A program made the position numbers and the translations under genes. Positions 1-57,500 of a stretch of 64,000 nt of DNA are shown here, piece by piece. Every line of letters starts with the position of its first letter. Position 1 is the first letter of the stretch. This DNA comes from Octopus vulgaris (Eukaryota): positions 176,204,001 to 176,268,000 of the forward strand of contig OX597816.1 of assembly GCA_951406725.2 (NCBI GenBank), in the 5' to 3' direction. The notes under the pieces are model-generated. The model ran no database searches and was not told where the DNA came from. It worked only from the letters and a program-made list of their open reading frames with translations.

Positions 1-231
1 CATAAGAGTGTTGAAAAAATAACAAGTGTTCCTGTGTCATTTCTCAAAATCACTCTATGAAGACAGTTTGCAATGGTGTCTCCATGAAACTGGTAGTTTG
101 CAGAATATTATGTACTTGCATTATGTTAACTACCCAATGAGGAATGAGATCCAGTATGCAGGGTTTCTTTTTGTTCCAGTTCGTGGTAGTCCAATATTTT
201 GCCCATATACTACACAATTATTACTGGTATT

Positions 232-612
232 GGAGGCGCAATGGCCCAGTGGTTTGGGCAGCGGACTCGCGGTCATAGGATCGCGGTTTCGATTCCCAGA
301 CCGGGCGTTGTGAGTGTTTATTGAGCGAAAACACCTAAAAGCTCCACGACGCTCCGGCAGGGGATGGTGGTGATCCCTGCTGTACTCTTTCACCACAACT
401 TTCTCTCACTCTTACTTCCTGTTTCTGTTGTACCTGTATTTCAAGGGGCCAGCCTTGTCACTCTCTGTGTCACGCTGAATATCCCCGAGAACTACGTTAA
501 GGGTACACGTGTCTGTGGAGTGCTCAGCCACTTACACGTTAATTTCACGAGCAGGCTGTTCCGTTGATCGGATCAACCGGAACCCTCATCGTCGTAACCG
601 ACGGAGTGCTTC
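232..612 (+). mobile_element. tRNA-derived SINE (octopus OR-like head), tail type A
   Basis: A box TGGCCCAGTGG and B-box-like GGTTTCGATTCCC. The head is shared with the copies at 13931-14237 and 36844-37133. Confidence 0.8.
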
Positions 613-1084
613 CACCATTACTGCTATAAATTTCTCACTCTGCAGAAAGAGGGATGCTGGAAATAATTTTAATTTCATATTTTTGTGTGATAAAGAAAAT
701 ATAATTTGTAAACAAGATAACTTTTTCTATTAGCCTCAACTTCAGAGATAAAATATTTTGTAATATTTATGTCTAATATTTTTCAGTTTGTTTAATTTCT
801 GATCATCATTGGGTATCTTATTCCTGGATAGTACCAGACCGGGTTTCGTTGTAACTGTATTATTTTGATAGTAATGTTGGCTTAGTGCTTATGATAATCT
901 ACTGATTCAGAGATAAGGAATTCAAACCTCATTTTATTCTTAGCTTTTCAAATATTCGTTGAAGACATGACTGGTTTTGAAACTACTATTGCACTGTGAC
1001 TGTAACATAAGCTGTTAATTTTCAGGCTGTCATGTATGTATGTTGCACTATATCAGGTCAAGTTGAAGCTACCTCTCAAGTCCA

Positions 1085-1420
1085 TCATCATCGTTTAGCG
1101 TCCGCTTTCCATGCTAGCATGGGTTGGACGGTTCTACTGGGGTCTGTGAAGCCAGAAGGCTTCATCAGGCCCAGTCAAATCTGGCAGTGTTTCTACGGCT
1201 GGATGCCCTTCCTAACGCCAACCACTCCGAGAGTGTAGTGGGTGCTTTTTACGTGCCACCCGCACAGGTGCCAGACAGAGCTGGCAAACGGCCACGAACG
1301 GATGGTGCCTTTTATGTGCCACCAGCACGAGGGCCAGGCGAGGCTGGCAACGGACACGAAACGGGGCGGTGCTGGCAACGGTCGCGAAACGGAAGGTTCT
1401 CTTACATGCTACCGGCACTG
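1085..1420 (-). repeat. representative RTE 3'-tail repeat (other copies near 2163, 4813-5613, 7221, 9510, 11140, 24485, 24812, 27950, 34790, 38304, 39495, 41257, 45268, 53073)
   Basis: Shared GGTTGGCGTTAGGAAGGGCATCCAGC...CCGTCCAACCCATGCTAGCATGGAAAGCGGACGTTAAACGA(TGA)n. It is contiguous with RTE ORFs at 15-16 and 17-19 kb. Confidence 0.85.
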
Positions 1421-1469
1421 GTAACACATCTGCAATTTCCATTGATCGATTTCGATTGGAAAAGCAAGG

Positions 1470-2790
1470 CTCTTAACCATGCTTGAAGATTCGAAAGACA
1501 GGCAGAAAATGGAAAATATGGAAAATCAAGGAGGTGGGGGATGCAGCCTTACAATCAGAGAAATAATGGGATATATTGAAGCCAATAGGCAAGGACTGTG
1601 CATAACAGAACTGCAATGGTGGTTAGAGGCCAGGAGAAAATTGAGGAGGGATCTGATTCTGCAGAAGATGAAAAGGGAAGAGAATGCCATGTAGAGTAGA
1701 ACGAAGAGGGCCAATGGAGGATGTAGAAAGGTGCACTCCAGAATTGTCTTAGCTGGAAACACTTGTGACATAATGACACCTCTTGGAATAAGTTTTTATC
1801 TTCAGATTTGTCTTTGATCTCCTTTCAAACATGAACCTAGTGAAGTAGGACAAATCAGATAATCCTGTGTGCCCACTCTTTTGAAGTAGATAGACAAGGG
1901 AACATGTTCTAAGCTCCTGGAAGAGTAGAACTAGCCCAAGGAAGATACACAAGGAGGCACTGTCCACATAATTAGTATGGTAAGAGTAGAACCAGAATCT
2001 CTTTCAACATTTTACATGGCAGGAGGTAGCAAATCATGACCAGGAACACATGCCATACGAGACACAAGAATGAACCCTTCTGAGTAGTGTGAATGACTGG
2101 GATTGCTCAGCAGACTTTCCAGGATCAACAAAACAACCAGAAATCACCAGGAAGGGTGGTGTCATCATCATCATCATCGTTTAATGTCCGTTTTCCATGC
2201 TAGCATGGGTTGGACGGTTCGACCGGGGATCTGGGAAGCCAGAAGGCTGCAACAGGCTCCGGTCTTATCTGGCAATGTTTCTACAGCTGGATGCCCTTCC
2301 TAATGCCAACCACTCCATGAGTGTAGTGGGTGTTTTTTACATGCCACCTGCACTGGTGCCAGGCGAGGCTGGCATCGGCCACGGTCGGATTGGTGCATTT
2401 TACGTGCCACCGGCACGGAAGCCAGTCGAGGCGGCACTGGCTTCGGCCACGATTCGGAGATGTGAGTTCAGATATTGTATTCTATTCCAGTTCATCAAAG
2501 CAACTGATTTTGATTGAACTCACGTTGCTGTTTGAAAGTGCACTAGAAGAATATATGTTCAAGCCTGTAAAACACACCAGTCTGACCAACATCTTGGGGG
2601 AAGCAAACTTTCAGGTCAAGGTTGTTGCTATAGAGGTTGGAGCCAGAAGTTTTGTGATTAAATCTGCTTATCATCTTAACCTCTAGGAAGAACAAGACAA
2701 AAGCCCTAAAGGCAATATCAGAGACAGCAGAGAGAATTTCCAGCTAAATTTGGCTGAAGAGGAACAAAAACGACCTCAATACTGTGTGAA
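1470..2790 (+). pseudogene. decayed RLE-type non-LTR retrotransposon C-terminus (HERO-like)
   Basis: DKSDNPVCPL...EHVLSS...AQGRYT (CCHC-region remnant) and QLILIELTLLFE...VAIEVGARSF (restriction-like endonuclease motifs IELTVPWE / VEVGARGF). It has many stops and is split by an RTE tail at about 2163-2457. Confidence 0.7.
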
Positions 2791-2974
2791 GATAATATTT
2801 TTTATGTAAAGTATAGAAGCCATCTTAACATGGCTAACCACATAGGGGAGGGGGTGTTACTGTAGCTCTATAGCCCCAGGAGATCGTCGTCTCTAGCTGG
2901 CTTTAGACACCATTTCAGTGCCCTTGAAGTATTTACAAAGGGAGGCCATCCCTTCCTCGCAAGCCTGAGTGATA

Positions 2975-3017
2975 CGCTCGGACTAGTTTCGGGATTTTTG
3001 TCCCTTGTCAACGGGCG
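2975..3017 (-). ncRNA. minimal type-I hammerhead ribozyme motif, U3-A8 variant
   Basis: Minus strand reads CGCCCG-UUGACAA-GGGA CAAAAA UCCC-GAAA-CUAG-UC-CGAGCG. Stem I has one mismatch, stem II is 4 bp, stem III is the palindrome ACUAGU, and the cleavage triplet is GUC. Confidence 0.75.
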
Positions 3018-3860
3018 GTAACCACCAGGTCACGATGAAAGAGAAGGCCGCCTTGCAAATATATAAGAGTTTTTCTAGTGACGTCTGCCACTGATTTCGA
3101 ATAATTTTAATTACAAATTTTAATTACAAATCAAACAGGTAAGATGCATTAAGAATTTCAATTTTAGTGTTTATCCATAATATTATTGCTTTTACATCTG
3201 TTGATTAAATTTACCTTCCCATAAAAGTCAAATTCAATCAGCAAGATCAGCTAAAATTACATAACTATAAACCACTGGTATATAAGCACCCACTGACAAA
3301 ATTTCAAATCTGCATGTAAAAAATTAACTAAGTTACAAGCAAATATTTTGGACACCCCCTTTGAACCTGAATAATTCAGAATAACATGAGCAAATAAGCA
3401 TTAAATTTTACAGATTAAACTGAGCACTAAAGGGTTAACTGCACAAGTCTGATATCCAAGTGACTGAAAAGTGTCAGTACCCAGAAATCATGATCTGATA
3501 TATTTGGAGCTATGTCCTTTTAGTTGGATAATCTTCAGTACAAATGTGTGTGTGTATGTACACAAACACATATACACAAGATGTATATATATGTATACAT
3601 TGATGTTTGTTTTTATGTTCAGTTATAATAAAAATAATTTTATATTAATCTGATGGGCTATTCTATATTTTCATAGAGTACAAATTTATCATTCTCATAA
3701 AAGGATGTTTTTATCTGACTTTGAAGTTAAGGCAAGTTAAGCCTTCATCGGACTGCAGTATGATGATGACTTAGCTGGCCATAACTTTAAAGTCACTGTG
3801 AACAACATTCTTGGATAAAAATAGTAAATATATGTGTATATGTATGAATATATATATATG

Positions 3861-4190
3861 CAATTACAGCGTGGAAGGTGTTTATAAGCCATTTAAGAAA
3901 CACACAAAAGTCGTTCGATTCACTTCAACATTTAAGTTTAATTTGTCAAAATATTTTCGTCGCTAAAATCCGCGACCTGTTCACTGACAAAAATCCGGAT
4001 TTTTGTCAGTGAACAGGTCGCGGTCTTATAGCGGCGAAAATATTTTGACAAATTAAACTTAAATGTTGAAGTGAATTGAACGGCTTTTGTGTGTTTCTTA
4101 AATGGCTTATAAACACCTTCCACGCTGTAATTGTTTTCGTTTCAGCACACGATCTCAGATCAAATTACTTGCTATGCAAGTACATCTCCT
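3861..4190. mobile_element. head-to-head inverted copies of a Penelope pseudo-LTR-like repeat (palindrome 3861-4133)
   Basis: Arms of about 136 bp meet without a spacer at AAAATCC|GGATTTT (3996/3997). The same family recurs at about 12930-13135. Confidence 0.7.
4002..4052 (+). ncRNA. atypical hammerhead-like motif, G3-C8 variant (mirror copy at 3942-3991 on the minus strand)
   Basis: UUUGUCA-GUGAACA-G-GUCGC(loop)GCGGC-GAAA-AUAUUU-UGACAAA. Stem I is 7 bp, there is an extra nucleotide after A9, stem III is the palindrome AAUAUU, and the triplet is UUU. Confidence 0.55.
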
Positions 4191-4771
4191 ATATATATAT
4201 ATATGAATATATGTATAAATATATATGTGTAAATCACAAAACCTATTCTTTCCACCTTTCCTAAGTGTTAAACTAATACGTTCCATGTGTTTGTGCGTTT
4301 GTTATTTTTAATGCTCAAATGTTTGTTCAAGTTTTAATTCAATTTGACTATATATGTGTGTATATATAGGTATGTATGTGTATATATAGATTAGAGGCAG
4401 ATATTCTCTGTATAGAATACTCTTCGTAGTGCTCAAGAAATTTGAACTTGAGCAGGTAGAGGAGGAGTAAATGTAAGGACAAGCAATTTAGGCTGGTCGA
4501 CACACAAAAAATATTAAATATATTTAATACAAAAAATGTACATATAAAAAAGTCTGACTTACACAGAATAGAAATGATATCAGGAATTAAAGGGGTTGAG
4601 TGGTAGTTTTATGAGTTCAACAGCTGTTTCTGGGGGTTTGGTGGTGCAAATTAATGATTGTAACTTGATTCTATCAACAGATAATGACAGCCTCCATCTT
4701 CAGGGAGGAATTTTACATTTGAGGTGTTGACAGAATGGAGAGAGAGAAATAAAAAACCCAAAAGGAATATG

Positions 4772-4803
<32 letters not shown>

Positions 4804-5883
4804 TGTGTGTGTGTGTGTGAAGAAGTGCCACTCCCAAAGTGTTGAAGGAACCCGGGATAGAGGTAGACCCAGGAAGACATGGGATGAGGTGGTCAAGCAT
4901 GACCTTTGAACGAAAGACCGAGACCTCTGGAAATATGCTGTGACTGCGAAGACCCGACAAATGAAGTGAGTTCATGGCTCGCAGGACGGCCTGCTATGCT
5001 AACCTCGGATTGTAGGGCGACCTGCTGTGCTTGGGGAAACCTATTGAGTCAAGTACATCAATATCAAAATAAAAATCAAATGGATAGTGTAGTTGTGGTG
5101 CCCGTGGCACGTTGGGCCTCACAGTGGAAATGATGAAAGACCGAGATCTGAGATATGCTGAAGTCAGTTCATGGCTCGCCGGACGGCCTGCTGTGGTAAC
5201 CTTGGATTGTAGAGTGACCCGCTGTGTTTGAGGAGACCTATTGAGTCAAGTACATCAACATCAAAATAAAAATCATGAAAATTGTAGTCATGATACCCGT
5301 GCCAGTGGCACGTAAAATGCACTGTCCAAGCGTGGCTGATGCCAGCGCTGCCTGACTGGCATCCGTGTCAGTGACACGTAAAAGACACCAACTGATCATG
5401 GATGTTTGCCAGCCTCCTCTGGTCCCTATGCCGATGGCACATAAAAAGCACCCACTACACTCACTGAGTGGTTGGCGTTAGGAAGGGCATCCAGCTGTAG
5501 AAACTCTGCCAGATCAAGACTGGAGCCTGGTGCAACCTCCTGGCTTCCCAGACCCCGGTTGAACCGTACAACCCATGTTAGCAAGGAAAATGGACGTTAA
5601 ACGATGATGATGATATATATATGTGTGTGTGTATATATATGTATGTATAGATATGTATATATATATAGAGATACGTAATAGAAATATGTTATAAAAAGAA
5701 AATAGAAACTACACAAGGAAATGTAAGGGGAAAGTAAGAAGAAAAACAAGCGAAAATGCACATTGGAAGTAAAAAAAGGTAAAGGCTTTTTATGAAAAGT
5801 AACGATAGATATACACAATTACTTGAACTGAGGTAGGAATAAAAATAATAAAGGTCATTATTGTGAATTGTTAAAGAGATTCA

Positions 5884-5922
5884 AAAGCATACGGGTTTCG
5901 TAAATTTACTACTCATTGCTTT
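5884..5922 (-). ncRNA. minimal type-I hammerhead ribozyme motif, A3-U8 variant, in a Penelope 3' end
   Basis: Minus strand reads AAAGCA-AUGAGUA-GUAAAUUUAC-GAAA-CCCG-UA-UGCUUU. Stem I is a perfect 6 bp, G10.1-C11.1 is present, and the triplet is GUA. It lies downstream of the GIY-YIG remnant on the same strand. Confidence 0.7.
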
Positions 5923-6079
5923 GAATACACAGCAATTAATGAACTGTGTCAGTTTTACTAGTCACTGAGTAAAAAGATTATGTGTAAGGGAGGTAAGTAG
6001 TTCAGGATTTGGTGCAATTAGGGTAGATATAGATCTGTACTGTGTATGGGATGTATGGGGGTTATTGGTATTAATTGAA

Positions 6080-6296
6080 AGGCGGCGAGCTGGCAGAAAT
6101 GTTAGCACGCCAGGCGAAATGCTTAGCGGTATTTCGTCTGTGTTACGTTGTGAGTTCAAATTCCGCCGAGGTCGACTTTGCCTTTCATCCTTTCGGGGTC
6201 AATAAATTAAGTACCAGTTACGCACTGGGGTCGATGTAATCGACTTAATACCTATGTCTGTCCTTGTTTAGCCCCTTGTGGGTAATAAAGAAATAG
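6080..6296 (+). mobile_element. SINE family AGGCGGCGAGCTGGCAGAA (also 10153-10387 +, 28638-28871 +, 54618-54831 -)
   Basis: GAGTTCAAATTCC B box and GCCTTTCATCCTTTCGGGGTC central box. Clear TSDs: GGTATTAATTGAAA here, GGTACTACACTTTGCC at 10.1 kb and GTTATATATTATCTTAT at 28.6 kb. Confidence 0.88.
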
Positions 6297-7189
6297 GTAT
6301 TAATTGAAAGGTTAGTAGTGTTCTGTATTATGTTATGTGTTCATATTGAGTTGGGGAAGATATTTATTGATGAAAGTTGCCTCTTTATTCATTCCTTGTT
6401 GTACTGAGGTGTTCTGCGAACATTGATAGAAAGGGGAAATTAGGATTAAGATTCCTATCACACCTTTCTATGTGTTCACTGACCTGTAACTGTCTGTATT
6501 GTGGGTGGCGGATTTGTTCTTTGTGGATAGTGGTTCTTCGACGGAGTGATATTCCTGTTTGGCCAATATAATTATTACCACACCCTAAACATGTAATGGC
6601 ATAGATTAGATTTTCCGAGGTACAGGAGAAATTTGATTTGATCTTAAATATTTCACCTTGTTTAAAGTGGAACTCTGAACCCTCCAAAAAGGGGGGGGGG
6701 CATGTACCACAGTTAGGTCAACCACATTTTTTCGCTTTTGATTCTGTTGTTAATGGATATAGTCTTGCGCTGGTTAATATTTTCTTCAGTGATTTAGGTT
6801 GCATTTTGCTTTTGATAATTTTGTATGAGCTTAAAATTTTGTTCATTGTTTTATCTCCTGTGAAGATGGGAATATTTTGGGTGCTAATATTGAAAGCTTC
6901 GTTGCTTCTAAGGTTATATGTGGAGATGTACGGGAGTATTTTTAAGTCTGGTTTAGTATTTCAGTTGACTTCCCTTAATGTTCGTATATCTATTTCCATA
7001 GCTTGTTTATAGATATGTATATATAGATATGTATATATATAGATATGTATATATAGATATATATACGTATGTATATAGATATATATATGTATGTATATAT
7101 GTGTGTATATTTATGTATACGTGTGTGTCTATATATACATACGTGTATAGATATGTGTATATTTATGTACATCTGTGTGTGTATATATG

Positions 7190-7220
<31 letters not shown>

Positions 7221-11775: not shown

Positions 11776-13144
11776 CTAGCAGAAAGTTCGCCCCTGGTCG
11801 GTTTTCTGCTAGCCCCTTGATAATATTTTCACATTTGATTCCAATTTCTAATAATTTTAATATTTTACATCTAATTATTTCTTTGTATAACAGTGCTCAC
11901 TTGCTAGTAAATATTGCTTTCATTATTTTATAACAGTCATAATCTCTCTTTTTTAAGCAAACATCACTGTAGTCCAAAATCAGAGGGAGAAGCAGTTTGT
12001 TGTGTTTTACCTTCACCTCAAAGCAACATAGAGATTTCAATTCAGCAGTTCTTTTGTGTGTGTGTATGAGAGAGAGAGAGAGAGAGAGAGCACATGGCAA
12101 ACAATGAATGAAATAAACATGAAATTTTAAAATTGTATAAATAAAAGGGCATTACTATATGTATATGCCCCACCACCACTACCACTTTGTTGCCTCATAT
12201 CATCCAGAAAAATGGATACTTTTTTACAATTTTAAATTTCCTACAAAAATGGATACTTTTTACAAAATTTATAGGGATTTATAGGAAAGAATTTTTGCAA
12301 GGGGGTGGAGAGAGGATTTCAGAAAATTCACATGATCTGACATTTTTCCCTCATAACTTTCAGGAAGGTAGGTATCTTTTAATGAAAATTTATACAAATA
12401 CCTTTCAAATGGCATAGATTATGATTAAAAAGAATTTTGTGGGGGATTTTCCCCATTTTTTAAACCACGACCTTCAAAGTGATGGGGTGGGGGACATCTT
12501 TGTATAAAAAAATTTTGAAAACTTCTTTTTTATATCCCTCCCCGCCTCATTATCCCACTCTGGACCTATTTAGGCCAATTTTTTTCCTCTTCAAAACCAT
12601 GGGAAGAGCATTTATGGTAAAAAAAAAATTTTTTAAGCTATTAATACTTTCAGAGGGAAAAGTGATTTAAGGGTGATTTGGCTGTTGTTTCTAGCACACC
12701 CGAAGACAACCCACCTTGTTCCTTTATCACTCTCGCATGTATTGATGTTTTTCAATATCCCCCCCCCCATAAATACATTTATATATTGTAAAGAAGAAAA
12801 TTTGAGAAATTATGAATTTGTTGCAAGCCTACTCCCTGACACCAATTATTTCTGTTTAGAAATTAAAATATTGAAGAGCCTGAGAAGGTCATTGCTGGCT
12901 TTATCCACAGTGATTTAAAAAAAATTTCGGGAATGTACTTTGCATAGCAAGAGACTTGATCTGAGATCATGTGCTGAAACAAAGACAATTGCAGCATGGA
13001 AGATGTTTGTAAACCATTCAAGAACGCACAAATACCATTCATTTGTGTCAAAATATTTTCGTTGCTTTGAAACTGCGACCTGTTCAGTGACAAAACTTCA
13101 CAAACGCGATGCAGCAAAGTTTTATCAGTGAACAGCACACGCAT

Positions 13145-14275: not shown

Positions 14276-14377
14276 TGGTAAATGGACAGAGCAAGAAATA
14301 GAACTACTAAAATCATCAGTGAAACGGTTTGGAGAAGATCTGAATAAAATCAGTGATGTCATAAAAAACAGAACTAC
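14276..14377 (+). CDS. BAP18: BAP18/C17orf49 orthologue, internal coding exon (SANT/Myb-like domain)
   Basis: tttcag|T GGT AAA TGG ... AGA ACT AC|gtaagt. Encodes GKWTEQEIELLKSSVKRFGEDLNKISDVIKNRT, matching human BAP18 AKWTETEIEMLRAAVKRFGDDLNHISCVIKERT as recalled. Phase 2/2. Confidence 0.93.
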
Positions 14378-15097
14378 GTAAGTCAAACCATTTTACTATT
14401 TGGTATTTTTTAAAACCGTTTTGTTATATTTCTAACCTGATTTTATTTCTATTAAATTCTATCAACATATTAATGTGATTAAAATAGGGCGAAAATGTTA
14501 AAATTGACACTAAATTAATAGCTCTTTTACTCTTTACTCTTTTATTTGTTTCAGTCATTTGACTGCGGCCATGCTGGAGCACCGCCTTTAATCGAGCAAA
14601 TCGATCCCGGGACTTATTCTTTTGTAAGCCCAGTACTTATTCTATCGGTCCCTTTTGCCGAACCGCTAAGTAACGGGGACATAAACACACACCAGCATCG
14701 GTTGTCAAGCAATGCTAGGGGGACAAACACACACACACAAACACACACACATACACATACATATATGTATATACGACAGGCTTCTTTCAGTTTCCGTCTA
14801 CCAAATCCACTCACAAGGCATTGGTCAGCCCGGGGCTATAGCAGAAGACACTTGCCCAAGATGCCACGCAGTGGGATTGAACCCAGAACCATGTGGTTGG
14901 TTAGCAAGCTACTTACCACACAGCCACTGCTGCGCCTATTACAGCTGTAAACAAAATTACATGCAATTTGCTTCTAAAATAAGTTAAGCGTAATGCTATC
15001 AAATGTTAAAAGGAGAAAATCGTAACAATGACAAAAGTTATTCAAAAAAATCGTAACTCTATTTCTGAAAAAGGAAATTACTTTCTTGCCAACCCAA

Positions 15098-19269: not shown

Positions 19270-20400
19270 GCTTTCTTTCTCAACATTGAACACGGCATCC
19301 ATCATTGACTCTATCACATCACTGACTCCTTCACCTGCACTTCTACCAATGTCATCTACTGCATCTCCTGCTCTCTCTGCCCTTCTCTATACATTGGACA
19401 AACAAGACGCTGCTTGGTTGACTGGTTCGCGGAACACCTCCGACTTAGCATTGACACCCTGGTCTTGCGTCATTTCTGCTCTACCAGTCACTCTTTGCAA
19501 CACCTGTCCGACTTCGGATTGTCCTTGCACAGGGGCATATGAATTCCCGTTTGCACCATGAACAGAGATTAATCTTCTCTCTTCATTCCTTTGCACCACA
19601 TGGGCTCAACTCCCCTCCCCTCTTTATCTAACCTCCTCCCCTCGCCTCTCCACCTCACACCTACTCCTTCCCACCTCTCCTCTCTTGCTCCGACTCCTAC
19701 TTCTTCTCTTAACTCCTACTCGCTTTCTCTCTTCTCTTCACTCCTATCCACCATCTCCTTCCCTTTCATTGTCACACCTCCCTTGTAACCCCACCCCTAC
19801 ACATTCCAACCCCACCTTCCCTATCCTCCCCACCCCCTCCCACATACCCTGCCTCTAACCCCACCTACCTACCCACATACCCCACCTCTATACCTACCCT
19901 CAGCCTAACCTGCATCCCACCCTTGCTTTCCCACTCTCGCCTCTCCCACCTTGCACCACCATCACACCACACCACACCACACACCACCATACCACACAAC
20001 ACATCACATCACACAACCACGCACACACTAGCACTGACCACTTCCCAGCCCCACATCTTCACACCTACACATACACACACAATCACACGTCAAGCTCTTT
20101 TCCACATTCACATACATACTCTCTTATATACATGCACGCGCACCTTCGTTTTGGGATCACCACTACTTTATTATCTCCCCTTCTTCCTAGCTCTCCTGTG
20201 TGACCCTTCTGTCCGGCATTCGCCATGATAGATCGCTAGCCACAGTTCACATTCTTTATTTTCTCTCCTTGTTTCTTTCTGTGGAAAAGCGTAGGCTCGA
20301 AATGTTAAAGACTTATTCACTTCTCAAGCGTTAAACTAATGCATCTGTTTGTTGTCTACACCACCTGTCTTTTGGTTTGTTTGGTTTTTTTTTGTGAATT
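19270..20400 (+). mobile_element. second Penelope-like retroelement 3' fragment
   Basis: A frame starting at 19315 and not listed in the ORF track reads HITDSFTCTSTNVIYCISCSLCPSLYIGQTRRCLVDWFAEHLR. After a frameshift it reads EQRLIFSLHSFAPHGLN. A C/A-rich spacer and a hammerhead-bearing end follow. Confidence 0.85.
20274..20311 (+). ncRNA. degenerate hammerhead motif (C3-G8) in a Penelope 3' end
   Basis: UCUUU-CUGUGGA-A-AAGC GUAG GCUC-GAAA-UG-UU-AAAGA. A6 is substituted. It lies downstream of the GIY-YIG remnant at 19315 on the same strand. Confidence 0.5.
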
Positions 20401-21070
20401 CTCCCTCTGTACAATCTAACCATGGACAGAAAAAACTGACTGACTAAATTGGTTTCAATCATTGTAATTTCCTCAACAACCAACTATTCTTCTCTTACAA
20501 CTAGTGGTAACATTGTGTTTATAGTCACTATTATTATTATTGACTTTGTTAAATCACATACACTGATTTACACAAATGCCAGTTCAATTGCGAAGTAACT
20601 AACATGTTAGTAATTATTCTTGATGTTATGATGTACTACCAGTATTGAAGCATGTGTGAATTAAAATTAGTGAAATATTTTAGTTGTAAACAGTATTTTA
20701 TCACATGGTCTTGAGTTTAAACTTTATCACAGTTATCCATGTCCAAGGCACACGATAACTGTTTGTTTCAGCTTGGTAGAATGTTAGGAAGTGCAAAACA
20801 CTTTTTTTTTTACCAAATTTTTTGCAACCATTGTATTGACATTTTTACACATCTGACATAATTTCAATTCTTAAATATATTTATTTTCCTTGCAGGTGGC
20901 ATGAACAAAACAGGTCTAATTTCTTATTGAGAAGTAAATAACATTTGTATGAGATAAATAACTATTGATTGATTGAAAGATAATGTGTTTTAGAAATATC
21001 TAGAAATAGTTATGTGAAGTGAGGGAAAATTGAGTCTGTTTGTTATATCATAATTATTGACTATTATTAG

Positions 21071-21213
21071 ATCACAGATTAAAGCCCAACTGAAGAGGAA
21101 GGCATATGAAGATGCTGGTTTACAGCCACCAACTGATGCATCACCAAAGAAACAAGTTTCACAGAAACCCACAATCTCAGAACAACCACAGCCTAAAAAA
21201 CAGAGATCTTCAG
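21071..21213 (+). CDS. BAP18: BAP18 internal coding exon
   Basis: tattag|A TCA CAG ATT ... TCT TCA G|gtaata. Completes the ACA codon from the previous exon. Encodes SQIKAQLKRKAYEDAGLQPPTDASPKKQVSQKPTISEQPQPKKQRSS (human AQIKATVKRKVYEDSG...PKK...KKQK). Confidence 0.92.
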
Positions 21214-22292: not shown

Positions 22293-23939
22293 CACTTGCG
22301 TCAGAAATTAATTAGCACTTCTCAAATTTCTACATTTTCTTACATTTTTTTAATTTAATTAACTTATTATCAGAAACGAACCCGTTTTTAATCAAAAATT
22401 TATTAAAACATATCCCACCATACCACATAATAGTCAATATCTTGTTGCACAGGTACTGTGCAGGGATGGCCCTCCATGCAGCAAGAAGTGCCCCAAACAG
22501 CTCGTGTCAGTTCCTGTATTGCTGCACATTCAAATCCCTACCCAATCGACTCCAGAGGTTCTCAATAGGGTTCAGGTCAGGTGACTGGCCAGTCCATGAC
22601 TGTCACCCTATGGTCCTTGAAGAAACCGGTTGTGAGCTTGGCTGTGTGGGGAGGCGCGTTGTCCTGCTGGAGCACGTACTCCTCGCCACCAAAGAGTTAT
22701 CCCGCAGAGGGTAGGGCAGCATTCCGTACTATCTCAACGTACTTTGCTGCGTTGATGTTGCCTTCGACGGCATAGAGCTGCCCAACACCACTGTAGCTGA
22801 ACGCCCCCCACACCATCAGACCACCCCCACCATGCTTCATGGTGGGAGCAATGCAGTCTTTGTTGAAGCGCTCACCCCTGCGGCGTCGCACATGGACAGG
22901 CTTGTCACTGACGAGACTGAAGCGCGACTGGTCAGTGAACATCACTGTCCGCCACTGCTGCACGGTCCATGTCTTGTGGGCACGGGCCCAGAGCAGCCGC
23001 CTCTTCCGGTTTTGGGCTGTAAGGAGCGGCTTACGGGCGGCCCTACAGGATTTTAGACCAGCTTCCAGTAATCTGGTCTTGACGGTGGTTGTAGACAACT
23101 GCTTCCCTGTCACCTTTTGCATCTCCTCCGCCAGTTGCCGGCTCGTTGCCCTTCGGTTGTTCAGCGACTTTCGGATCAGCATCCGGTCCTCCCGCTGGGT
23201 CGTCAGCCTCTTCTGTCCCCTACCCTTTTTGTCAGCTGCTGATCCGGTTTCTTCGTATTTCTTAAATAAGCACTGAATTGTGCGCCTGGCTACACCAAGT
23301 TTTCTGGCTATTGCAGCCTCCGACAGCTTCCCACGCCACGAGAGAGCCTCGTACCGTCTCTCCAAGGTCATGCGAGGTCTTGGGCCCCTCTAGGAATGAA
23401 CGACAAAAACCAGTTATTTTCATTAAAACTATTCATTTGAATAATGTTATGCTATAACAAAACTACTATGAGTTATTATTCATTAAACAAAAAAGAAAGA
23501 AAGCAGAATTTCTCACTTTATTTGATGTATAACAGAAAGTTTTGTGAACCGGAAGTGACCTCATCAAGCAGAGTGTAGGAGAATTTGTGAGGAAAAAAAA
23601 TCTTGCAAATACACAAATCAATTAACCTACAAGCTGTTCAAAACGTCTTACGCGATGAGAAAACTTAGTACGGTGTGATTTCGGTCCTTGCGAGGCGCTA
23701 CCTATATCTATTAAACAAAGGAAGATTTGTCTGCATCCGCACTCCAAGCTATTGTTGCACTGCTGTGTCAACATCATTAGGCTGTAGACTCAAACCGCTC
23801 TGCAAACAAAGTTACGTCATCGTTCTGCGCAACAGTGAACTCGCAACAAAGCAATAGTTCGAGATATGGCCACTAGGTGACAGCACATACCTTGAGTGAA
23901 GAGCAAATCAAGGGTGCTAATTAATTTCTGACGGTAGTG
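22293..23939 (-). mobile_element. full-length Tc1-family DNA transposon, inactive
   Basis: 26-bp TIRs CACTTGCGTCAGAAATTAATTAGCAC / GTGCTAATTAATTTCTGACGGTAGTG with TA on both sides. The transposase ORF 22697-23371 has an HTH, RKPLL, FTDQSRF and KHGGGGLMVWGAF. It continues through frameshifts into LQQDNAPPH and QSPDLNPIENLW. Confidence 0.93.
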
Positions 23940-23950
23940 TATATATATAA

Positions 23951-24412
23951 TTTCTCAATTCACTAGAGCCTCCTGGACTACCTCCACACATATTAGCACT
24001 TAAAGTTGGAACTCCTGTAATGCTACTCCACAATCTGGAACCACCAAGACTTTGCAATGGAACACAACTGGTGATAAAGGAAATGATGTCACACGTTATC
24101 GAGGCAATCATTCTTTCTGGATGTGGAAAAGGTGATGACGTCTTTATTCCAAGAATTCCTCTTACTCCATCAGGAGCAGAAATTCCATTTACATTCAGAA
24201 GACTGCAATTCCCCCTTCATGTCAGCTTTGCCATGTCCATTAACAAATCTCAGGGTCAAACCCTCTCTGTAGCTTGTCTTCTCTTGGAAGAGCCCTGCTT
24301 CTCGCATGGGCAACTGTATGTTGGCTGCTCAAGAGTAGGAACCAAAAGAAACCTTTTAGTATATGCTCCACAAGGAAAAACAAGGAACATTGTTTACAAC
24401 GAGGTGTTATAA
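23951..24412 (+). mobile_element. Helitron RepHel Pif1-like helicase C-terminal fragment
   Basis: [34 protein letters not shown]...FIPRIPL...[21 protein letters not shown]...[13 protein letters not shown]...[10 protein letters not shown]. Confidence 0.9.
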
Positions 24413-25091: not shown

Positions 25092-27931
25092 AGCTAGGGT
25101 GTGGCACTTTTTCACACAACTATCTTCATCTATTCTTACTACGTGTCCATACCAGCGTAGACGCCTCTCTTGCACACTACACACATCTGATGCTTCTTAG
25201 GTCCAACTTTTCTCTCAAGGTACTTACACTCTGTCGAGTATGAACACTGACATTACACATCCATCGGATCATACTGGCTTCATTCCTTGTGAGCTTACGC
25301 ATATCCTCAGCAGTCACGGCCCATGTTTTACTGCCATGTAGCATGGTTGTTCGTACACATGCGTCATACAGTCAGCCTTTTACTCTGAGCGAGAGGCCTT
25401 TTGTCACCAACAGAGGTAAGAGCTCTCTGAACTTTGCCCAGGCTATTCTTATTCTAGCAGTTACACTTTCAGCACACCCGCCCCCGCTACTGACTTGGTC
25501 ACCTAGATAACGGAAGCTATCAACTATTTCTAGTTTTTCTCCCTGGAATGTGGCGGAAGTTGGTCTCTGCACATTTTCAGTGTTTATTGCTCCTGAGCAT
25601 CTGCCACAGACAAAAACTATCTCTCCTAGTTAGCCTTCCTTTGACATTGCTGCACCTCTTATGTGTCCATAGCTTACACTTGGTGCATCTTATAGAGTTT
25701 CTACCTACGCCTTTTCTACAGATCGAGCAGGGCCATCTACCTGAAGGCGTTTGTGACTTGTCTACCTTCCTACTTATTAGGACTTTGGTTTTAGCTAGGT
25801 TGACTCTAAGGCCCTTCGATTATAATCCTTGCTTCCACACCTGGAACTTCTCCAGTTCTGATAGTGACTCTGCAATTAGAGCAAGGTCGTCAGCATAGAG
25901 GAGCTCCCAGGGGCATCCTGTCTTGAATTCCTCCGTTATTGCCTGTAGGACTATGATAAATAGGAGGGGGCTGAGGACTGAACCTTGTTGGACCCCTACC
26001 TCCACCCGGAATTCTTCACTGTACTCATTGCCAACCCTCACCTTACTAGCAACGTCCCTATACATGGCCCGCACAGCTCTCACTGACCATTCATCTATCC
26101 CTAGTTTCCTCATTGACCACCAGATAAGGGATCAGGGGACCCTGTCGAAGGCTTTCTCCATGTCAATGAAAGCCAGGTACAGGGGCTTATCTTTGGCTAG
26201 GTATTTCTCCTGCAGCTGTCTTACCAGAAATATAACATCAGTGGTACTTTTCCCGGGCACGAAACCAAACTGCATCTCATCTAAACTAATTCTCTCTCTA
26301 ATTAGTTGGGCTATGACCCTCTCCGTGATCTTTATTACCTGATCCAACAACTTGATACCTCTGTAATTATTTGTAACTAGGGCGTCACCTTTACCTTTCT
26401 AGCAGTTGACTATTATGCTGCTACACCAGTCATTGGGTATGACTCCTTCGTGTATCACCTGGTTAACTATACGGGTGACTAAGCTATAGCCGACACTACC
26501 AGATGTTTTGAGCATCTCTGCAGTAATTCCTGATGGGCCTGGGGCTTTCCCTGTCTTCATGCTTCTAATTGCCTTAACTACCAAGGAACTGTCAATTTGG
26601 ATAGCTGGTCCCTCTGTTGGGTCGATATTCGGCAGACTCTCTTTCTCCCATTCATTTTCTTTATTCAGCAACCTTTCATAGTGGCGTCTCCAAACCTCTC
26701 TCTTTGCATCCTCATTTAGCGCAAGTGTACCATCATCCATGCAAACACATTTCTCTCTTACCACATCACGATTCTCTCTCACACACTGTCTTGCAACACA
26801 AAATACCCCAAGTCTTTGGTCCTCACGGCGCATAACATTGGCAAATTTTTTCTTATCTGCTTCCCCTCTGGCTAAATAAACCTGTCTCCTAGCTTCTCTT
26901 TTGGCAGTCTGATACAATTCCCTGCTACCACCATTCTTCCAGTCCTTCCAAGCCTGTCTCTTTTCTCTAATAGCCCTGTCTACAACATTGTTCCACCACC
27001 ACGTTATTTTGGGTCGAGAGGGGACTTTGCACCATCCACAGATCTGGTCAGTGGCTCTCAGCAGGTTGTCTTGTAGAAACCTCCAGTTGTCTTCAACATT
27101 ATGTGAATCTATATCCTCATCTATTTCGTCAAAGGCTTCGAGTAATATGTCTCTAAATCTCTGTCCATTTGCAAGGTCTTTAAGCTTCCAGACCCTTCTT
27201 TTCCATGTTGGTCGTCTTCTGGTCATCCTCTTAGTCTTGATCCTAAAGTCACTCACTACCAGTCTATGTTGTGGGGTACATTCTTCACCTGGGAAGGTTT
27301 TGGCATTTATAAGCAACCATCTTTCCCTTTTTCTGGCAAGGATGTAGTCAATTTGGCTAGTATGTCAGCCCGATCGGTAGGTGACTGGTAGGTTTCCTGA
27401 AGTTTGTAATGCAAACCATAAGATCATTTGCGTCTCAGAACTCCAGCAGCCTGGTTCCCTCCTCATTCCGGGAACCATAGCCGTAGCCTCCATGTACACC
27501 ATGGAAGCCCCCGTATGCTGTCCAACATGTCCATTGAAGTCACCAGCCACAAAAAGAAGGTCCCTGTCGTTTGGCAACGAGGTAGTCTGCAGTAGGGTGT
27601 CATAGAATCGGTCTTTCTGTCCATCAGGTAGCCCCAGCTGAGGGGCATAGGCTGAGATAATGGTTGCTAACCCATGATGAAGCACTAATCTAATCCTAAG
27701 TATTCTGTTGCATACTCTGACTGCCTCAATTACCTTATCTACCCGTTTTTCAGCGAGAAGTATACCAACGCCCCCGACCCCGTCAGTGTTCCCTGCCCAG
27801 AAAATTCTTTGCCTGTGAGGAACCTAGCAGAACCTCCTCTCCACCTTACTTCTTGGATTCAGTATATATCAACTCATCTCCGTTCAAGCATCTCAACAAT
27901 CTCACTAGACCTACCTTTCAGTGTGCCAACC
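25092..27931 (-). mobile_element. near-complete RTE-clade LINE ORF (APE endonuclease plus RT), frameshifted
   Basis: VGTLKGRSSEIVEMLERR, SAYAPQ, AGDFNGHVG, PQHRLVV, KAPGPSG, QFGFVPG, FIDMEKAFDRVP, GVQQGSVLSPLLF, LLYADDL, FRYLG. A PHD-like Cys region is present; there are several frameshifts. Confidence 0.93.
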
Positions 27932-34147: not shown

Positions 34148-35837
34148 TTAATTGAAAAGGAAAGCAAATTTTGAAAGAATGATAAAATGTTTATGAGGGA
34201 TGTTTTCTGCTATTTTTCTTGTTCAGTTTTCAACAATTGAAAGGTGTCACATACTGTAACAATGCTCTTCAAGTCATGTGATGCTTCCACTTCTACTATG
34301 ATTGGCCAACTAGTTGTTACACACGGACCACATGGGAACTTTCTGGAATTCTGGAATGTTTTGAAAAATTCAAATGTATAGTGTTTTATTGCTATTGAAT
34401 GTAAAATATACTAGAAAATGATAATTAAGCTGGTTTAATTAACCTCAGTACACGTATACACTATGTGTGTGGAATCCCCAAATGTCTTTTTAAAAAATCC
34501 AAGTTTTTTTTGGGGGGGGGGGGGGCTGTACTTTACTGATCTTATATGTTTATAAAACGAAATATCTACAGTTTGATGCCCTATCAACTTTATTTCCTCG
34601 TAACTTTCCTAAAAAAAAAAGCTTATTTCTTTAATTGAAATTTTGCATTGGTACATTTTCTACAGTGTACATTAGGATTATAATTGATAATATTAACTTT
34701 TTTTTTCTGTGAAGTTTCAAATCATTTTCCCTGCCTTCCTGATTTTCTCTCCATATAATTCTTATTAACGTGCATATTTTTAAATAACATTGGATGGTGG
34801 GCACGTAACAAACACCATCCGATCGTGGCTGTGCCAGCCTCGCCTGGCCTCCGTGCCAGTGGCACGTAACAAACACCATCCGAGCATGGCCGTTCGCCAG
34901 CCTCGTCTGGCACCTGTGTCGGTGGCACATAAAAAACACCATCCGAGCGTGGCTGTTCGCCAGCCTCATCTGGCACCTGTGTCGGTGGCACATAAAAAAC
35001 ACCATCCGAGCGTGGCCGTTCGCCAACCTTGTCTGGCATCTGTGTCGGTGACACAGAAAAAGCACCCACTACACTCACGGAGTGGTTGGCGTTAGGAAGG
35101 GCATCCAGCTGTAGAAACACTGCCAGATCTGACTGGAGCCTGGTGCAGCCTTCGGGTTTCCGAGACCCCAGTTGAACCGTCCAACCCATGATAGCATGGA
35201 AAGCGGGCGTTAAACGATGATGATGATGATGATTTTTGTGAAATGTGTTTTTAAGAATGTAGATTACATAATGGTTAAATAAACCTGAAAAGTGATTGAA
35301 AAATGCTTAAGCTACAGAAATTGGTGGTAACAGAATCTGGAATGAGGCAGATGTTCTAAAGTTCCTCCCCAAAATATTTTTCTCAATTTTATCAACTTCA
35401 TCACAATCTGCATTGTTGAAAACTTATCTCTGCAAAGTTTCTGAAAAAAATGTGTATTTTTCAAAAGTTACAAGAATTAGAATAGATGGTGAGATACCAA
35501 AATGGAGTTATGCCTCTTTCTATCTGCCCTATAAATAGACACAGGCATGGCCGTGTGGTTAAGAAGCTTCCTTCCCATCATGAGTTCAATCCCTTAGTAC
35601 AGCATCTAGGGCAAGTGTCTTTTAGCTCAGCATTAGGTCAACCAAAGACTTGTGAATGGAAACTGAAAGAAGCTTGTTGTTTGTGTGTGTGCATGATAGT
35701 TCTAAGTAAGTTTATTGTCCATTTCCTGTCAAGTATGAAAATATGTCACTCATGGGAAATATTACCTTACATGGAAGCAGGTTAGAGTTGCATTTGGCCA
35801 TAGACAGTCCAACTCAGCAAAGTCTATCCAATCTGTA

Positions 35838-36264
35838 CATGGTTAGAATGACTGACGAACAACTTCCCAAACAGATCTTCTACTCCCAACTCAAAGACGG
35901 CAAGCGTACAAAAGGAGGCCAGAAGAAACGCTACAAGGACTCCCTGAAAACGAACCTCAAAAAGTGTGACATTAACTTCACCAACTGGGAGGAAACGGCA
36001 AAAAACAGACCACTCTGGAAAACCACCATCCATGAGGGAACGGTGACTTTCGAGTCGAAAAGGTCGGCAGAGCTGGAGGAGAAAAGACGACGACGGAAGG
36101 AGCGCCAACAACAACCACGTGCGACTCTCCCTTCTGGCACTAGATGTCCGCACTGCGACCGATCTTTTCAAGCAAGAATTGGTCTTATCGGTCACCTACG
36201 GACTCACCAGTAAATTTGTGCGAAGACCATCATCCTCGACCTTGAGGGATTGCCATCATCATCA
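35838..36264 (+). mobile_element. RTE (BovB-like) LINE 3' fragment with C2H2 finger
   Basis: RMTDEQLPKQIFYSQLKDGKRTKGGQKKRYKDSLK...CPHCDRSFQARIGLIGHLRTHQ*, followed by a short UTR and (CAT)n. Confidence 0.88.
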
Positions 36265-38739: not shown

Positions 38740-39491
38740 TTGGGTCATCCCATAATAATGCAGTTTTTTCAATTGCATGAACTAAAAGTTAACTTGCTAT
38801 AAAAGCTGGTAGTAATTTTACCATGTCCTTATGCTTAGTGCAAGTTTTGAAGAGTGCAGTTCGATTTTAACAGTTATTTTTTCAAAGCTATAATGGAAGT
38901 GACAAAGGAGCATATTTTGCTTTATGAGTTCAATGAAAGCAACAACACAATGGAAAGTGCAAGGAATATTAATGCAGTATCTGGGTATCAGGCAATAAGC
39001 GTAAGCCAGTGTCAATGGTGGTTCCAGAAATTTTGAGCTTGAAACTACAACCTAGAACATGAGCCTTGTACTGGAAAATCTGTAGAGCTTGGCTAGGATG
39101 TCCTGAAAACCCTGGTGGAACAAAATCCATCATAACTGTTGAGGAATTGGCAGAGAGGCTTCGATTTGGTCATTTATCCATTCATCAACATCTGTGTGCC
39201 TTCAGATAAGTCGGCAAATTAGGTCAATGGGTTCCTCACAAACTTTCTATGTCTAATCAAAATCATTGGGACAGAAAAAATACGAATTCTGTAGACAAGG
39301 TCTGGAGGAGTATTTTTCATTGTAGACAACTGGATTTTGGAAGAGGGGGGGCCTTGCAAGTCTACCAGATAGATGGAAGAGCTTTGTAGAAAATGAAGGA
39401 AAGTATATTTTAGATTAAAAAAGAACTTTATCTTAGTTTTGAAGAATAAAAGAAGTATAAAAAAAACTGTATTACTTATGGGATAACCCAA
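38740..39491 (+). mobile_element. internally deleted mariner element
   Basis: TA-flanked TIRs TTGGGTCATCCCATAA / TTATGGGATAACCCAA. The remnant reads MEVTKEHILLYEFN...CQWWFQKF...KLGQWVPHKL. Confidence 0.85.
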
Positions 39492-44265: not shown

Positions 44266-44797
44266 ATCTCTGATGACCATATAGAGGATCCCTAAGCTTC
44301 TAGATCGGTCTTTTTTGTGGTACCCTTCTGGCCTGAGGTCTAATGTTATTTACGACTAGTCTATGCTGCAGGGTACATTCTTCACCAGAGAAGATCTTTG
44401 CATTTATGAGCAACCATGTATCTCACTGTCTGGTGAGAATGCAATCGATCTGGCTAGTGTGGTCATCTGATTGATAGGTAATCAGGTGGCTGTCTAGCTT
44501 CTTCAAGTTGGTATTGCAAATCGATAGGTTATTCACATCACAAAACTCCAGTAGCCTTGTCTTCTCTTCATTTCGAGAACCTATTCCATGGCCCCCATGT
44601 GCACTATGGAACATACCTGGCTGCTGCCCAACATGTCTTCTGAAATCACCAGCCACGAAGATGAGATCATTGTTATTCCTCTTTGAGATAGCCTGCGGAA
44701 GGATATCATAAAAGCAGTCCTTTTGTTCATTTGATAGATCCGCTTGCAGGGGCATAAGCAGAGATAATTGTCGCTGTTCTATTTTGCAAAACTAATC

Positions 44798-51379: not shown

Positions 51380-51425
51380 TTACTTTACCGGTTTCACTTT
51401 TTTAAAAAAAGATTGTCAAAAGTAA
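51380..51425 (-). ncRNA. minimal hammerhead-like motif, U3-A8 variant
   Basis: Minus strand reads UUACUU-UUGACAA-UC(U)7(A)6GU-GAAA-CCGG-UA-AAGUAA. Stem I is perfect, stem III is the palindrome ACCGGU, and the triplet is GUA. The first stem II pair is a U.U mismatch. Confidence 0.6.
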
Positions 51426-54583: not shown

Positions 54584-57500
54584 TTTAGCGAGCTTTTAGC
54601 CCACTAATTTAACATAAATTTCTTTATTGCCCACAAGGGGCTAAACAAGGACAGACAAAGGTATTAAGTCGATTACATCGACCCCAGTGCGAAACTGGTA
54701 CTTTATTTATCGACCACGAAAGGATGAAAGGCAAAGTCGACCTCGGCGGAATTTGAACTCACAACGTAACGCAGACGAAATACCGCTAATCATTTCGCCC
54801 GGCGCGCTAACGAGTCTGCCAACGCCGCCTTATTAATATAATAATAATTTAATATAATGTCCGGTCATCCTTCGATAGCTGTAGGAATTGATCCAGTGAG
54901 AAACAACAACAATTCCTATGAGTTTTCGAAGCCTTCATGTACCTGGTGTATTTATTCCAATCCAGGATGAGAGCATTTATACACAGCTTGTAGATTAACA
55001 TTTAACAGAACAGAATGGAAGTTGAATAAGAAAAGGTTTTTGTCTTGCCGCCTTCCATGACTGCTATAGTGGATTCAGCTAAATTCAAATCAACGCGGCG
55101 GGCTCGTCCAGTAGCAGGAACAGAGAGGAAGACGATGCAGTTAGCATCAGGCTGTGTAGGAGGTGCTAAAGAGGCCGTTCTTGGTTGTCCCTATCTCATG
55201 GGTGCCACCTCGTTGTTAAGGATGGGACCAGGGGAGGAAACTCTAGATGACCCATATTAAAACATTGATTCAACTAAGGTGGCCTACATAACCCTCTCCG
55301 AGAGCGAAAGAAGAGAAAAGGTCAAAAAGACAAGGAGTAAAACTGTAGGCACCGAAGGAGATAATTGTCTTGCGTTTCACAAGGCTGAGCGGAGATACTG
55401 AGGGCATGTGAATGACTATCATGGAACACGGCAAAACGCGAACAATGCATGCAAACACAAGAATAGGTAAATGAAAAGTTGCAGAATCTGTATGAATGTA
55501 TGTTATGCAATGTTAAGGTCGTGTGCAGGATGTGCCAGCCAGTGCAAGACTGAGGTACAAGACGCCTGACATGCAAACACGATAACAACTGTCCAGGAAA
55601 CTGGAAATCATAGGATGCAAGAGTCAAAGTATTTTAAGTTAGCAAGAGCGGGAGGTCACTTACAAGAGGCTAGTGTCGTAAGCGTGCAAGAGTGGTGGGT
55701 CGCTTGCAGAGGCTGGAAGTACTAGCATGTAGGAGCAAGGAGAAAACAACTAAAATCCTAGAGTGTGGTGTATGTGTGCACGAACATTGAAACAACATAT
55801 AATATACACAGAAAGAAAAAGCCTTTGAAATGTACAAGGCTGCAAATGCCATGCCAAAATTAGTGGATGCAAAGGCAAGGTAAACAAGTATATACATGAA
55901 AAGGAAAAACAGAATAAATGCATTAAACAGGAAAGAAAAAAAACAAACAGAATCTGAGTTTCATATAAAAATAGTTTTACAAAGTTTTTGAGACCAATTA
56001 ACATGACACACACTGCGGGTATGACGTATGTTGGTGGGTGTGGGGAAGATGCGTGTAACTGAACTGGTGGTGGATGCAGTGGGGCAGCATTTCCCTGTTG
56101 TATAGTGAAGGATGGGGGAGTATGAGGCTCTGGTGTGAGCGCGTCTGTTTAGGCCTGTTTAAGTCTATCAACCGAGACTATTTCTCAGGAACCATTCAAG
56201 TTTATGGGGAAATGTTTATCATTGCGTGCCAACACGCGATAGGGTCCTGAGTAAGGAGGAGTGAGGGGACCTCTCACTGCATCCTTACGTACAAAAACGT
56301 GAGTCCACGAGGCAATATCCTTGGGGACCAAAGATTTTATTGTCTGCTGCTGAGTGTTTATTGGTGGAAGCTCCTGAAAGTATGCACGCAGGTGGTTAAC
56401 ATAAAGGGCCGGATCTTGAGTAGTAAGATCAACTGGTGCGAGCATCTGCCCCGGCAAGGACAATGGGGTACCATAAAGCAGCTCAGCTGGAGAGAAACCA
56501 AGGTCCTCCTTAACTGATGTTCGGATACCAAGGAAAACAATAGGAAGATACTCAGTCCAATGCTGGGTGTCAAGAGAGGCTCGTAAAGCAGCTTTCAGCT
56601 TTCCACCATACCGTTCGAAGCTGGATGGTAACTGGTAGTCCTAATCCGTTGAGCCCTGATGATTTTTGCCAACTTGGAAAAGAGGTGTGACTCGAACTGC
56701 CTGCCACGGTATGTAGTGATGGTGGTGGGAACACTATAGCGCAATATCCATCCTGATACTAGAGCTCGCGCTACCGATTCAGCAGTAACATCTGTTAACG
56801 GAATCACTTTAGGCAATCGGCTGAAGTGATCAATACAAGTCAAGATATATGTGAATCCCTGACTGATATTCCACGGTCCCACAATATCAATATGCACATG
56901 AGAGAAATGGGTGTCCTGAGAGTTAAAAGTGCCGAAAGGTGCCCATATATACTTGTGCACTTTAGACTTTTGGCATTGAAGACAGGCGTGAGACCATTTG
57001 GTCTCATGTTTGGCCAGAGAAATCTAGCTGTAATGAGTTTTACCGAGGCCGCGATGCCAGGATGAGCCAGCCTATGCAAAGCATAGAAGACAACCTTGTG
57101 GTGCTTCTCCGGAATGAAGGGGAGAGGTGACTCCGTCGATATGTCGCACAAGATGCTCCTGTCGGCAGTTGGTATAGGCAGGTACTTGAATTTACATGTT
57201 GCAAATTCAGCAGATGTGGTATCAAATGAGTCCAAAAAGGCTGGTCTGAGGCTAAAACCGTTAAGTCAATTGCAGAAGTGGGTGCGAATTAGTTGATTGG
57301 CAAATGGGACAAGGCCCCAGCAGGAGTGTTCTGGGTTCCCGAGATATGCTGAATGTCGCTGGTAAACTGGGCAACAAAATCGAGATGTCTTGTTTCCCTC
57401 AGCGAATATTTTTCAGGCTTAGACCGTAAGGCAAATGCAAGGGGTTTATGGTCCGTGTAGAAGGTAAACTGTCCCCCTGACGGAAGTGTTTTACTGCCAG

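Follow-up and report, generated by a model that had tools for sequence, protein, structure and literature searches.

A hammerhead-like motif with an A3-U8 core, probably a new variant of the minimal hammerhead, in the pseudo-LTR of a decayed Penelope-like element of Octopus vulgaris

The stretch of DNA analysed here (the window) comprises 64,000 nucleotides of the Octopus vulgaris genome (GCA_951406725.2, contig OX597816.1, positions 176,204,001 to 176,268,000 of the forward strand), and all positions below are counted within it. On its minus strand, Pfam, protein comparison and tblastn revealed a broken, 5′-truncated ORF remnant of a Penelope-like element (PLE) at 6333-7008 (7008-6345 by tblastn), which retains the end of the RT thumb, a linker of the CX2-5CxxC type (here C-x4-C-x2-C, its spacer containing one stop) and a GIY-YIG endonuclease with its CCHH residues. 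Two TGA codons interrupt the reading frame, which also shifts near 6440 and terminates at a stop at 6335-6333. From two stops in 223 codons, the divergence d of this copy was estimated as ~0.06 (95% range 0.008-0.23). The Pfam match to GIY-YIG is marginal (E 1.4e-4, 22.5 bits versus a cut-off of 22.6). In the protein comparison, eight of the 542 candidates matched at E<=1e-5 with 35-51% identity (best 3.5e-51); several of these are full-length RT plus GIY-YIG proteins showing 42-49% identity to the remnant, and the only named relatives among the eight carry a cephalopod label (46% identity). The alignment of the remnant covers residues 542-725 of an RT protein of 753 aa, which places the GIY-YIG domain C-terminal to the RT. 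Furthermore, a search of representative proteins, which come with no DNA context, recovered 1775 proteins at E<=1e-3, the mark of a large family.

The element is 5′-truncated at ~7008, where it adjoins a (TA)n/(TACA)n microsatellite (7010-7200). Its 3′ UTR or pseudo-LTR (5669-6332, minus strand, with an approximate 3′ boundary) is U-rich past the motif described below and ends at a (TA)n tract; a tract similar to that of 7010-7200 lies below ~5668, and the insertion is flanked by (TA)n. This pseudo-LTR is single, and the window holds neither an upstream pseudo-LTR nor a tandem partner for it. A search with short motifs found no 5′ exon of the SANT-domain gene (see below) upstream of the PLE.

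A SINE, identified by BLASTN within the window and by its TSDs, interrupts the 3′ UTR at 6082-6295 on the plus strand, antisense to the PLE. The preliminary description had put it at about 215 bp, and it measures 214 bp between two 15-bp TSDs (6067-6081 and 6296-6310) that agree at 15/15 positions. Its orientation was judged by eye from an A-rich tail and a B-box-like motif. Three full-length relatives of this SINE occur in the window, none of them homologous to the hammerhead motif; four of 180 columns hold changes private to the present copy, and among the substitutions seen in the copies, G>A and C>T are the most frequent (12/25). The SINE was rejected as the carrier or promoter of the motif, including as a non-LTR retrozyme or SINE-borne hammerhead, because it has the wrong orientation and is bounded by TSDs. 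A second abundant SINE-like repeat family, with copies that are 70-89% identical, is present at 5400-5667 and at at least 12 other sites.

Within this 3′ UTR, sequence, descriptor, shuffles and folding define a minimal type I hammerhead-like motif with an A3-U8 core at 5884-5922 (minus strand), and its sequence is exactly the one quoted earlier. It had been placed ~460 nt downstream of the ORF, a distance counted from a stop that the frameshift induces; the true C-terminus lies in another frame, and 417 nt separate the stop at 6335-6333 from A3, or 188 nt after subtraction of the SINE and one TSD. The expected pseudo-LTR position, on the same strand and after the stop of a GIY-YIG PLE remnant, is borne out. 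The 5′ strand of stem I (5917-5922) pairs at 6/6 positions with 5889-5884, and ~4 more base pairs are possible across a bulge (5926-5923 with 5883-5880). The first core box, AUGAGUA (5910-5916), supplies A3 (5916), U4, G5, A6, G7, U8 (5911) and A9 (5910), and A9 is followed without an extra nucleotide by stem II (5900-5909), which consists of 3 bp and a 4-nt loop with the closing pair G10.1-C11.1 (G5909/C5900). Stem II is perfectly palindromic over its ten bases, with a self-duplex energy of -7.6 kcal/mol. The GAAA box (5899-5896, G12 to A15.1) and the stem III remnant ACCCGU (A15.1 to U16.1 at 5891) together span 5891-5899, and the pair A15.1-U16.1 and an NUH site are present. By hammerhead numbering, cleavage is predicted after GUA, between A17 (5890) and U1.1 (5889), in agreement with the site proposed before. 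The bases at positions 3 and 8 (A5916/U5911) are Watson-Crick partners, a complementarity seen in the sequence only. In the predicted 400-nt fold, both stems of the three-way junction form, stem I with 6 bp and stem II with 3 bp; the predicted pairing probabilities of stem I run from 0.24 (outer) to 1.0 (inner), the inner three pairs being at least 0.9, in the 400-nt context as well. Since the box does not read CUGANGA literally and helix III is not palindromic, the motif was filed as a variant.

We then considered whether this copy could dimerise. ACCCGU had been described as one substitution away from the palindrome ACCGGU of a motif at 51.4 kb, which would permit dimeric folding. The 51.4-kb motif does carry an ACCGGU stem III, and the distance of one substitution is correct, but ACCCGU lies equally close to ACGCGU, leaving two candidate palindromes. 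Dimeric folding through stem III fails for the copy as it stands, ACCCGU giving almost no homodimer duplex (-0.3 kcal/mol versus -8.3 for the 51.4-kb motif). Nearest-neighbour folding, a secondary-structure model that ignores the tertiary energy of the core, paired A3 with U16.1 (P 0.85-0.91) and gave A15.1-U16.1 a P of 0.0, and hammerhead-shaped dimers reached -5.6 and -6.8 versus -29.4 for the best cofold. This model thus predicts a sequestered core, with A3 trapped by U16.1. The 5884-5922 copy is probably a catalytically inactive fossil. A dimer formed by swapping stem II was not favoured, its modelled energy being about that of the stem III swap and a self-complementary 4-nt loop being common by chance (~0.1 by our estimate); that the palindromic stem II lets the family dimerise by stem II rather than stem III exchange is improbable. 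A17 avoids an N3-N17 pairing with A3, a rule broken by the 51.4-kb motif (U3 with A17), and this avoidance is weak evidence consistent with a functional ancestor.

Several other elements were noted in the window. A short non-coding element at 3861-4185 adjoins (TA)n and has a 274-bp, 96% palindromic arrangement resembling the inverted 5′-truncated structure of PLE insertions; it contains two hammerhead-like motifs placed back to back (cores at 4009, plus strand, and 3984, minus strand) with G3-C8, an extra G, a 7-bp stem I and a palindromic stem III. A 74%-identical relative of this element lies at 12933-13095 (minus strand); positions 3 and 8 of its core are mismatched (C/C), and its stem II is weakened. 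The 51.4-kb motif (51381-51425, minus strand) is hammerhead-like with U3-A8 and the palindromic stem III mentioned above, shares with Hydra-clade rows a U/U opposition beside the core, and has an A17 that could pair with U3; no PLE ORF was detected near it with the PLE queries used, and BLASTN gave no homology between it and the motif at 5884-5922. A second PLE endonuclease remnant (19309-19630, plus strand) has a long C/CA-rich 3′ region and is followed by a decayed minimal hammerhead-like motif with C3-G8, recognised by eye (20274-20311, plus strand). Exon-like pieces at 14280-14381 and ~21070-21170 (plus strand) belong to a host gene, putatively BAP18-like, in which Pfam recognises a Myb/SANT domain (E 2e-6). 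The remaining elements are a fragmented LTR-retrotransposon with DUF7041, RT, RNase H and integrase pieces (56188-59888, minus strand), a Tc3-like transposase (22700-23389, minus strand), a Pif1 helicase piece (23951-24409, plus strand), an RT fragment (25823-26131, minus strand), a C2H2 zinc-finger stretch (35710-36210, plus strand), a Mos1-like HTH (38851-39033, plus strand) and an endonuclease fragment (44426-44791, minus strand). None of the 56 rows published in Fig. S3 of PMC4209133 shows G3-C8, just as none shows A3-U8.

Further copies were sought within and beyond the window. BLASTN of 5400-7100 and of 5840-5960 against the window returned only copies of the SINE and of other repeats, and the best non-self match of the motif region in the window had an E of 0.24. 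A GTDB scan yielded two PLE relatives (L001 and L002) among 50 candidate stretches; tblastn of a PLE relative against plasmids gave no match. L001 is an apparently intact, full-length PLE (positions 1-3875 of a Bacteroidota MAG contig, 42% identical) with a long open region upstream and a canonical hammerhead at 3660, 146 nt after the stop, which has a C3-G8 core, no extra nucleotide, G10.1-C11.1 and a palindromic stem III. L002 (33% identical) is a decayed PLE amid microsatellites (2000-5600 of a Rhodospirillales MAG contig), in which C3-G8 first boxes with incomplete partners were seen by eye. Both records probably represent eukaryotic DNA, from misbinned animal sequence, in bacterial MAGs. 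A pattern search for the motif itself found one match in the window, namely the motif under study, and none in L001 or L002.

A question raised by this single copy is whether its A3-U8 pair reflects the state of the parent family or the decay of one insertion. As an indirect approach, a descriptor blind to 3-8 pairing was applied to the window and to shuffles, and found four matches from three independent insertions, compared with 0.053 per shuffle. The 3-8 pairs of these strong motifs are A-U (5916), U-A (51419) and G-C (4009/3984), all of them Watson-Crick and none canonical; among shuffled matches the pair was Watson-Crick in 10/32, and three such pairs in a row have a probability of ~0.03. 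Two weaker, sub-threshold motifs judged by eye, at 13087 (C/C mismatch) and 20279 (decayed C3-G8 core), are exceptions to the all-non-canonical pattern. The non-canonical Watson-Crick pairs of the three strong motifs favour family-level covariation over decay. Pair counts on all five motifs (87% paired, 0/500 shuffles, one row being off register) are circular for the stems, which the descriptor had picked, and only the 3-8 column is informative: it reads A-U, C-G, G-C, U-A and one mismatch. The low number of stops, the identical TSDs and the few private changes of the SINE point to a modest divergence of this copy, which speaks for the family reading. We also used a posterior model combining an assumed family prior for A3-U8 with the copy divergence d. 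It assigned family-level A3-U8 a posterior of 0.53-0.99 at d 0.06-0.10 with an assumed prior of 0.1-2%, and of 0.14-0.69 at d 0.15-0.23 with an assumed prior of 0.1-0.5%, the whole range under the assumed priors being 0.14 to 1.0. Judging from the sequence comparisons, it is likely that A3-U8 is the family state.

The strongest alternative is an ordinary PLE hammerhead, of a family with C3-G8, U3-A8 or G3-C8, in which two private substitutions happen to pair. Two transitions would be enough from G3-C8, a core that does occur in the window, and G>A and C>T are the very changes that are most frequent among the SINE copies; moreover, this one copy is visibly decayed, its ORF carrying stops and a frameshift and its stem III being broken, both L001 and L002 have C3-G8, and a genome scan favours the picking of such oddities. 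Against this stand the joint chance of such substitutions, which the posterior model puts at ~2e-4 to 3e-3 per copy at d 0.06-0.10, the intactness of the remaining core and of stems I and II, and the expectation that decay mostly produces mismatches, yet three independent motifs are compensated. We regard this alternative as unlikely, and a family-level A3-U8 as the better account of the pair.

A further alternative accepts A3-U8 as the family state and takes the motif for a non-catalytic structured RNA element, active in protein binding or template folding, in which the 3-8 pair serves the fold only; it overlaps in anatomy with the reading that we prefer. In an exhaustive double-mutant scan of a type III hammerhead, 3-8 was rescued by the G-C swap only and the A-U swap was not (PMC9901934), although that scan is not decisive, since the natural U3-A8 was likewise unrescued. 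Mutants of a PLE hammerhead showed unimpaired insertion in vitro, and no reads mapped to the cut site (PMC11167929); the predicted misfolding of the present core points the same way. Against this reading, G12, G5, A9, A13-A15.1, U16.1 and an H17 are all kept, and selection on catalysis would be the simplest reason for compensation at a tertiary pair of the active core. We rate a purely structural role as improbable; by analogy with related elements, it is fairly likely that the ancestral family was catalytically active.

Chance was assessed with descriptors of different stringency. A first descriptor matched the 5884-5922 motif alone in the 64-kb window, and a strict descriptor, its thresholds chosen post hoc once the motif had been seen, accepted 0/300 block-shuffled windows. 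When the 413-nt stretch 6081-5669 was shuffled, relaxed criteria (stem I of at least 3, stem II of at least 3, any bases at 3 and 8) were matched in 22/40,000 cases, 7/40,000 with a Watson-Crick 3-8 pair and 0/40,000 with a stem I of at least 6. Folded as 39 nt, the motif had a z-score of -2.8, and as 50 nt one of -2.9. A loose descriptor matched 85/300 shuffled windows, the two core boxes by themselves were found in 10/100 shuffles, and the 86-nt context folded no better than shuffles (z -0.8, 38/200), so the signal rests on boxes, stems and position combined. At gathering score, nothing in the 64-kb window matched Rfam, whose models may not cover PLE minimal hammerheads, and none of its 46 matches in 3500-7200 at E<=10 was a hammerhead; ARAGORN found no tRNA. 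A chance arrangement in an AT-rich 3′ UTR, for which the loose matches, the Rfam result and the unremarkable 86-nt fold may be cited, is scarcely credible given the absence of matches with a 6-bp stem I among the local shuffles and the correct strand and distance from the PLE stop, as in L001.

Overall, the motif is almost certainly a PLE hammerhead by origin. As a composite reading, we favour with some confidence that it is the pseudo-LTR hammerhead of a Neptune/Nematis-type PLE, whose parent family carried A3-U8 and of which this copy is probably an inactive fossil. In the parent family, A3-U8 would be the normal core, a swapped form preserving the 3-8 tertiary pair, and stem III would be a six-base palindrome. 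Two pseudo-LTR copies of a tandem transcript would exchange their palindromic stems III, and only in this dimer would a slow cut after GUA take place, probably assisted by the element's protein. The present copy would have arisen as a 5′-truncated insertion in (TA)n that was later interrupted by the SINE, and one change in stem III would have broken its palindrome. More tentatively, A3-U8 may be fixed in an active PLE family, and the PLEs of this genome may use all four Watson-Crick 3-8 pairs, forming a pool hidden from CUGANGA searches; under this four-pair reading, no family would carry at position 17 a base that can pair with its N3, as A3 is found here with A17.

Selection of PLE hammerheads for cleavage is debatable, as they cleave weakly and their cleavage was dispensable for insertion in vitro. 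If true, family-level 3-8 compensation in all four combinations would provide direct comparative evidence of selection on active-core geometry, would extend the natural cores by a variant of poor activity in one laboratory scan, and would mean that published counts of PLE hammerheads are underestimates. If instead the family is C3-G8, the locus is an ordinary decayed repeat.

The literature on octopus hammerhead ribozymes that we searched held nothing bearing on the A3-U8 motif, and a search for natural A3-U8 cores found none. Such cores may be contained in Lunse et al. 2017, reportedly a survey of PLE hammerhead variants, and in Przybilski and Hammann 2007, which is said to deal with exchanges of the 3-8 pair. 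Among the 56 rows of Fig. S3 in PMC4209133, we counted 53 with C3-G8, three with U3-A8 and none with A3-U8, and A3-U8 occurs in 0/34 rows of File S2 of PMC8557442. The earlier claim that A3-U8 is an uncommon natural core agrees with these rows, but its force is reduced, as both sets come from CUGANGA-based descriptors and the absence is partly by construction. The descriptor of PMC4209133 demands 'cuganga' and 'gaaannuh', and the present motif fails both boxes. Five short motifs were also absent from the available part of the PMC8557442 supplement.

In its endonuclease and linker features, the element resembles the Neptune/Nematis EN+ PLEs (PMC8557442), sharing a C-terminal GIY-YIG with CCHH, a CX2-5CxxC linker and a microsatellite target; the likeness rests on these features, the RT core being missing from the 6333-7008 copy. 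The motif agrees with the PLE minimal hammerheads described in PMC4209133, which cleave weakly and as dimers only, in its type I topology, tiny stem III and G10.1-C11.1, and in its position in the 3′ pseudo-LTR after a GIY-YIG ORF in a single 5′-truncated copy; Table S1 of that work likewise includes 5′-truncated copies with a 3′ hammerhead only. Unlike them, it has the core AUGAGUA. It shares a two-base insertion in helix III with the PLE hammerheads that have a six-base palindromic helix III (L001 and, in the same Fig. S3, the rows of Marsupenaeus japonicus and Drosophila); an extra nucleotide after A9 is likewise missing from L001 and the M. japonicus row, the latter sharing A17 too, whereas all of these retain C3-G8 and an intact palindrome. 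The hammerhead of Anolis Poseidon (PAc) offers a case of 3-8 dependence in a PLE: its protein-assisted cleavage requires the 3-8 pair, and C3G/G8C gives partial rescue (PMC11167929). This hammerhead belongs to another clade, however, has a natural C3-G8, and no A-U is among the mutants in the part of the study available. A C3-G17 pairing has also been proposed (PMC3884650). A parallel for the core is U3-A8, reported among natural variants (PMC3088659) and known as a family-level covariation in PLEs, including those of S. mansoni (PMC4209133). The present motif shares with these variants the compensation of 3-8 to a pair with two hydrogen bonds, in the reverse order, with a purine at 3 and a pyrimidine at 8. 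On these sequence comparisons, its A3-U8 core is probably a new variant of the PLE minimal hammerhead.
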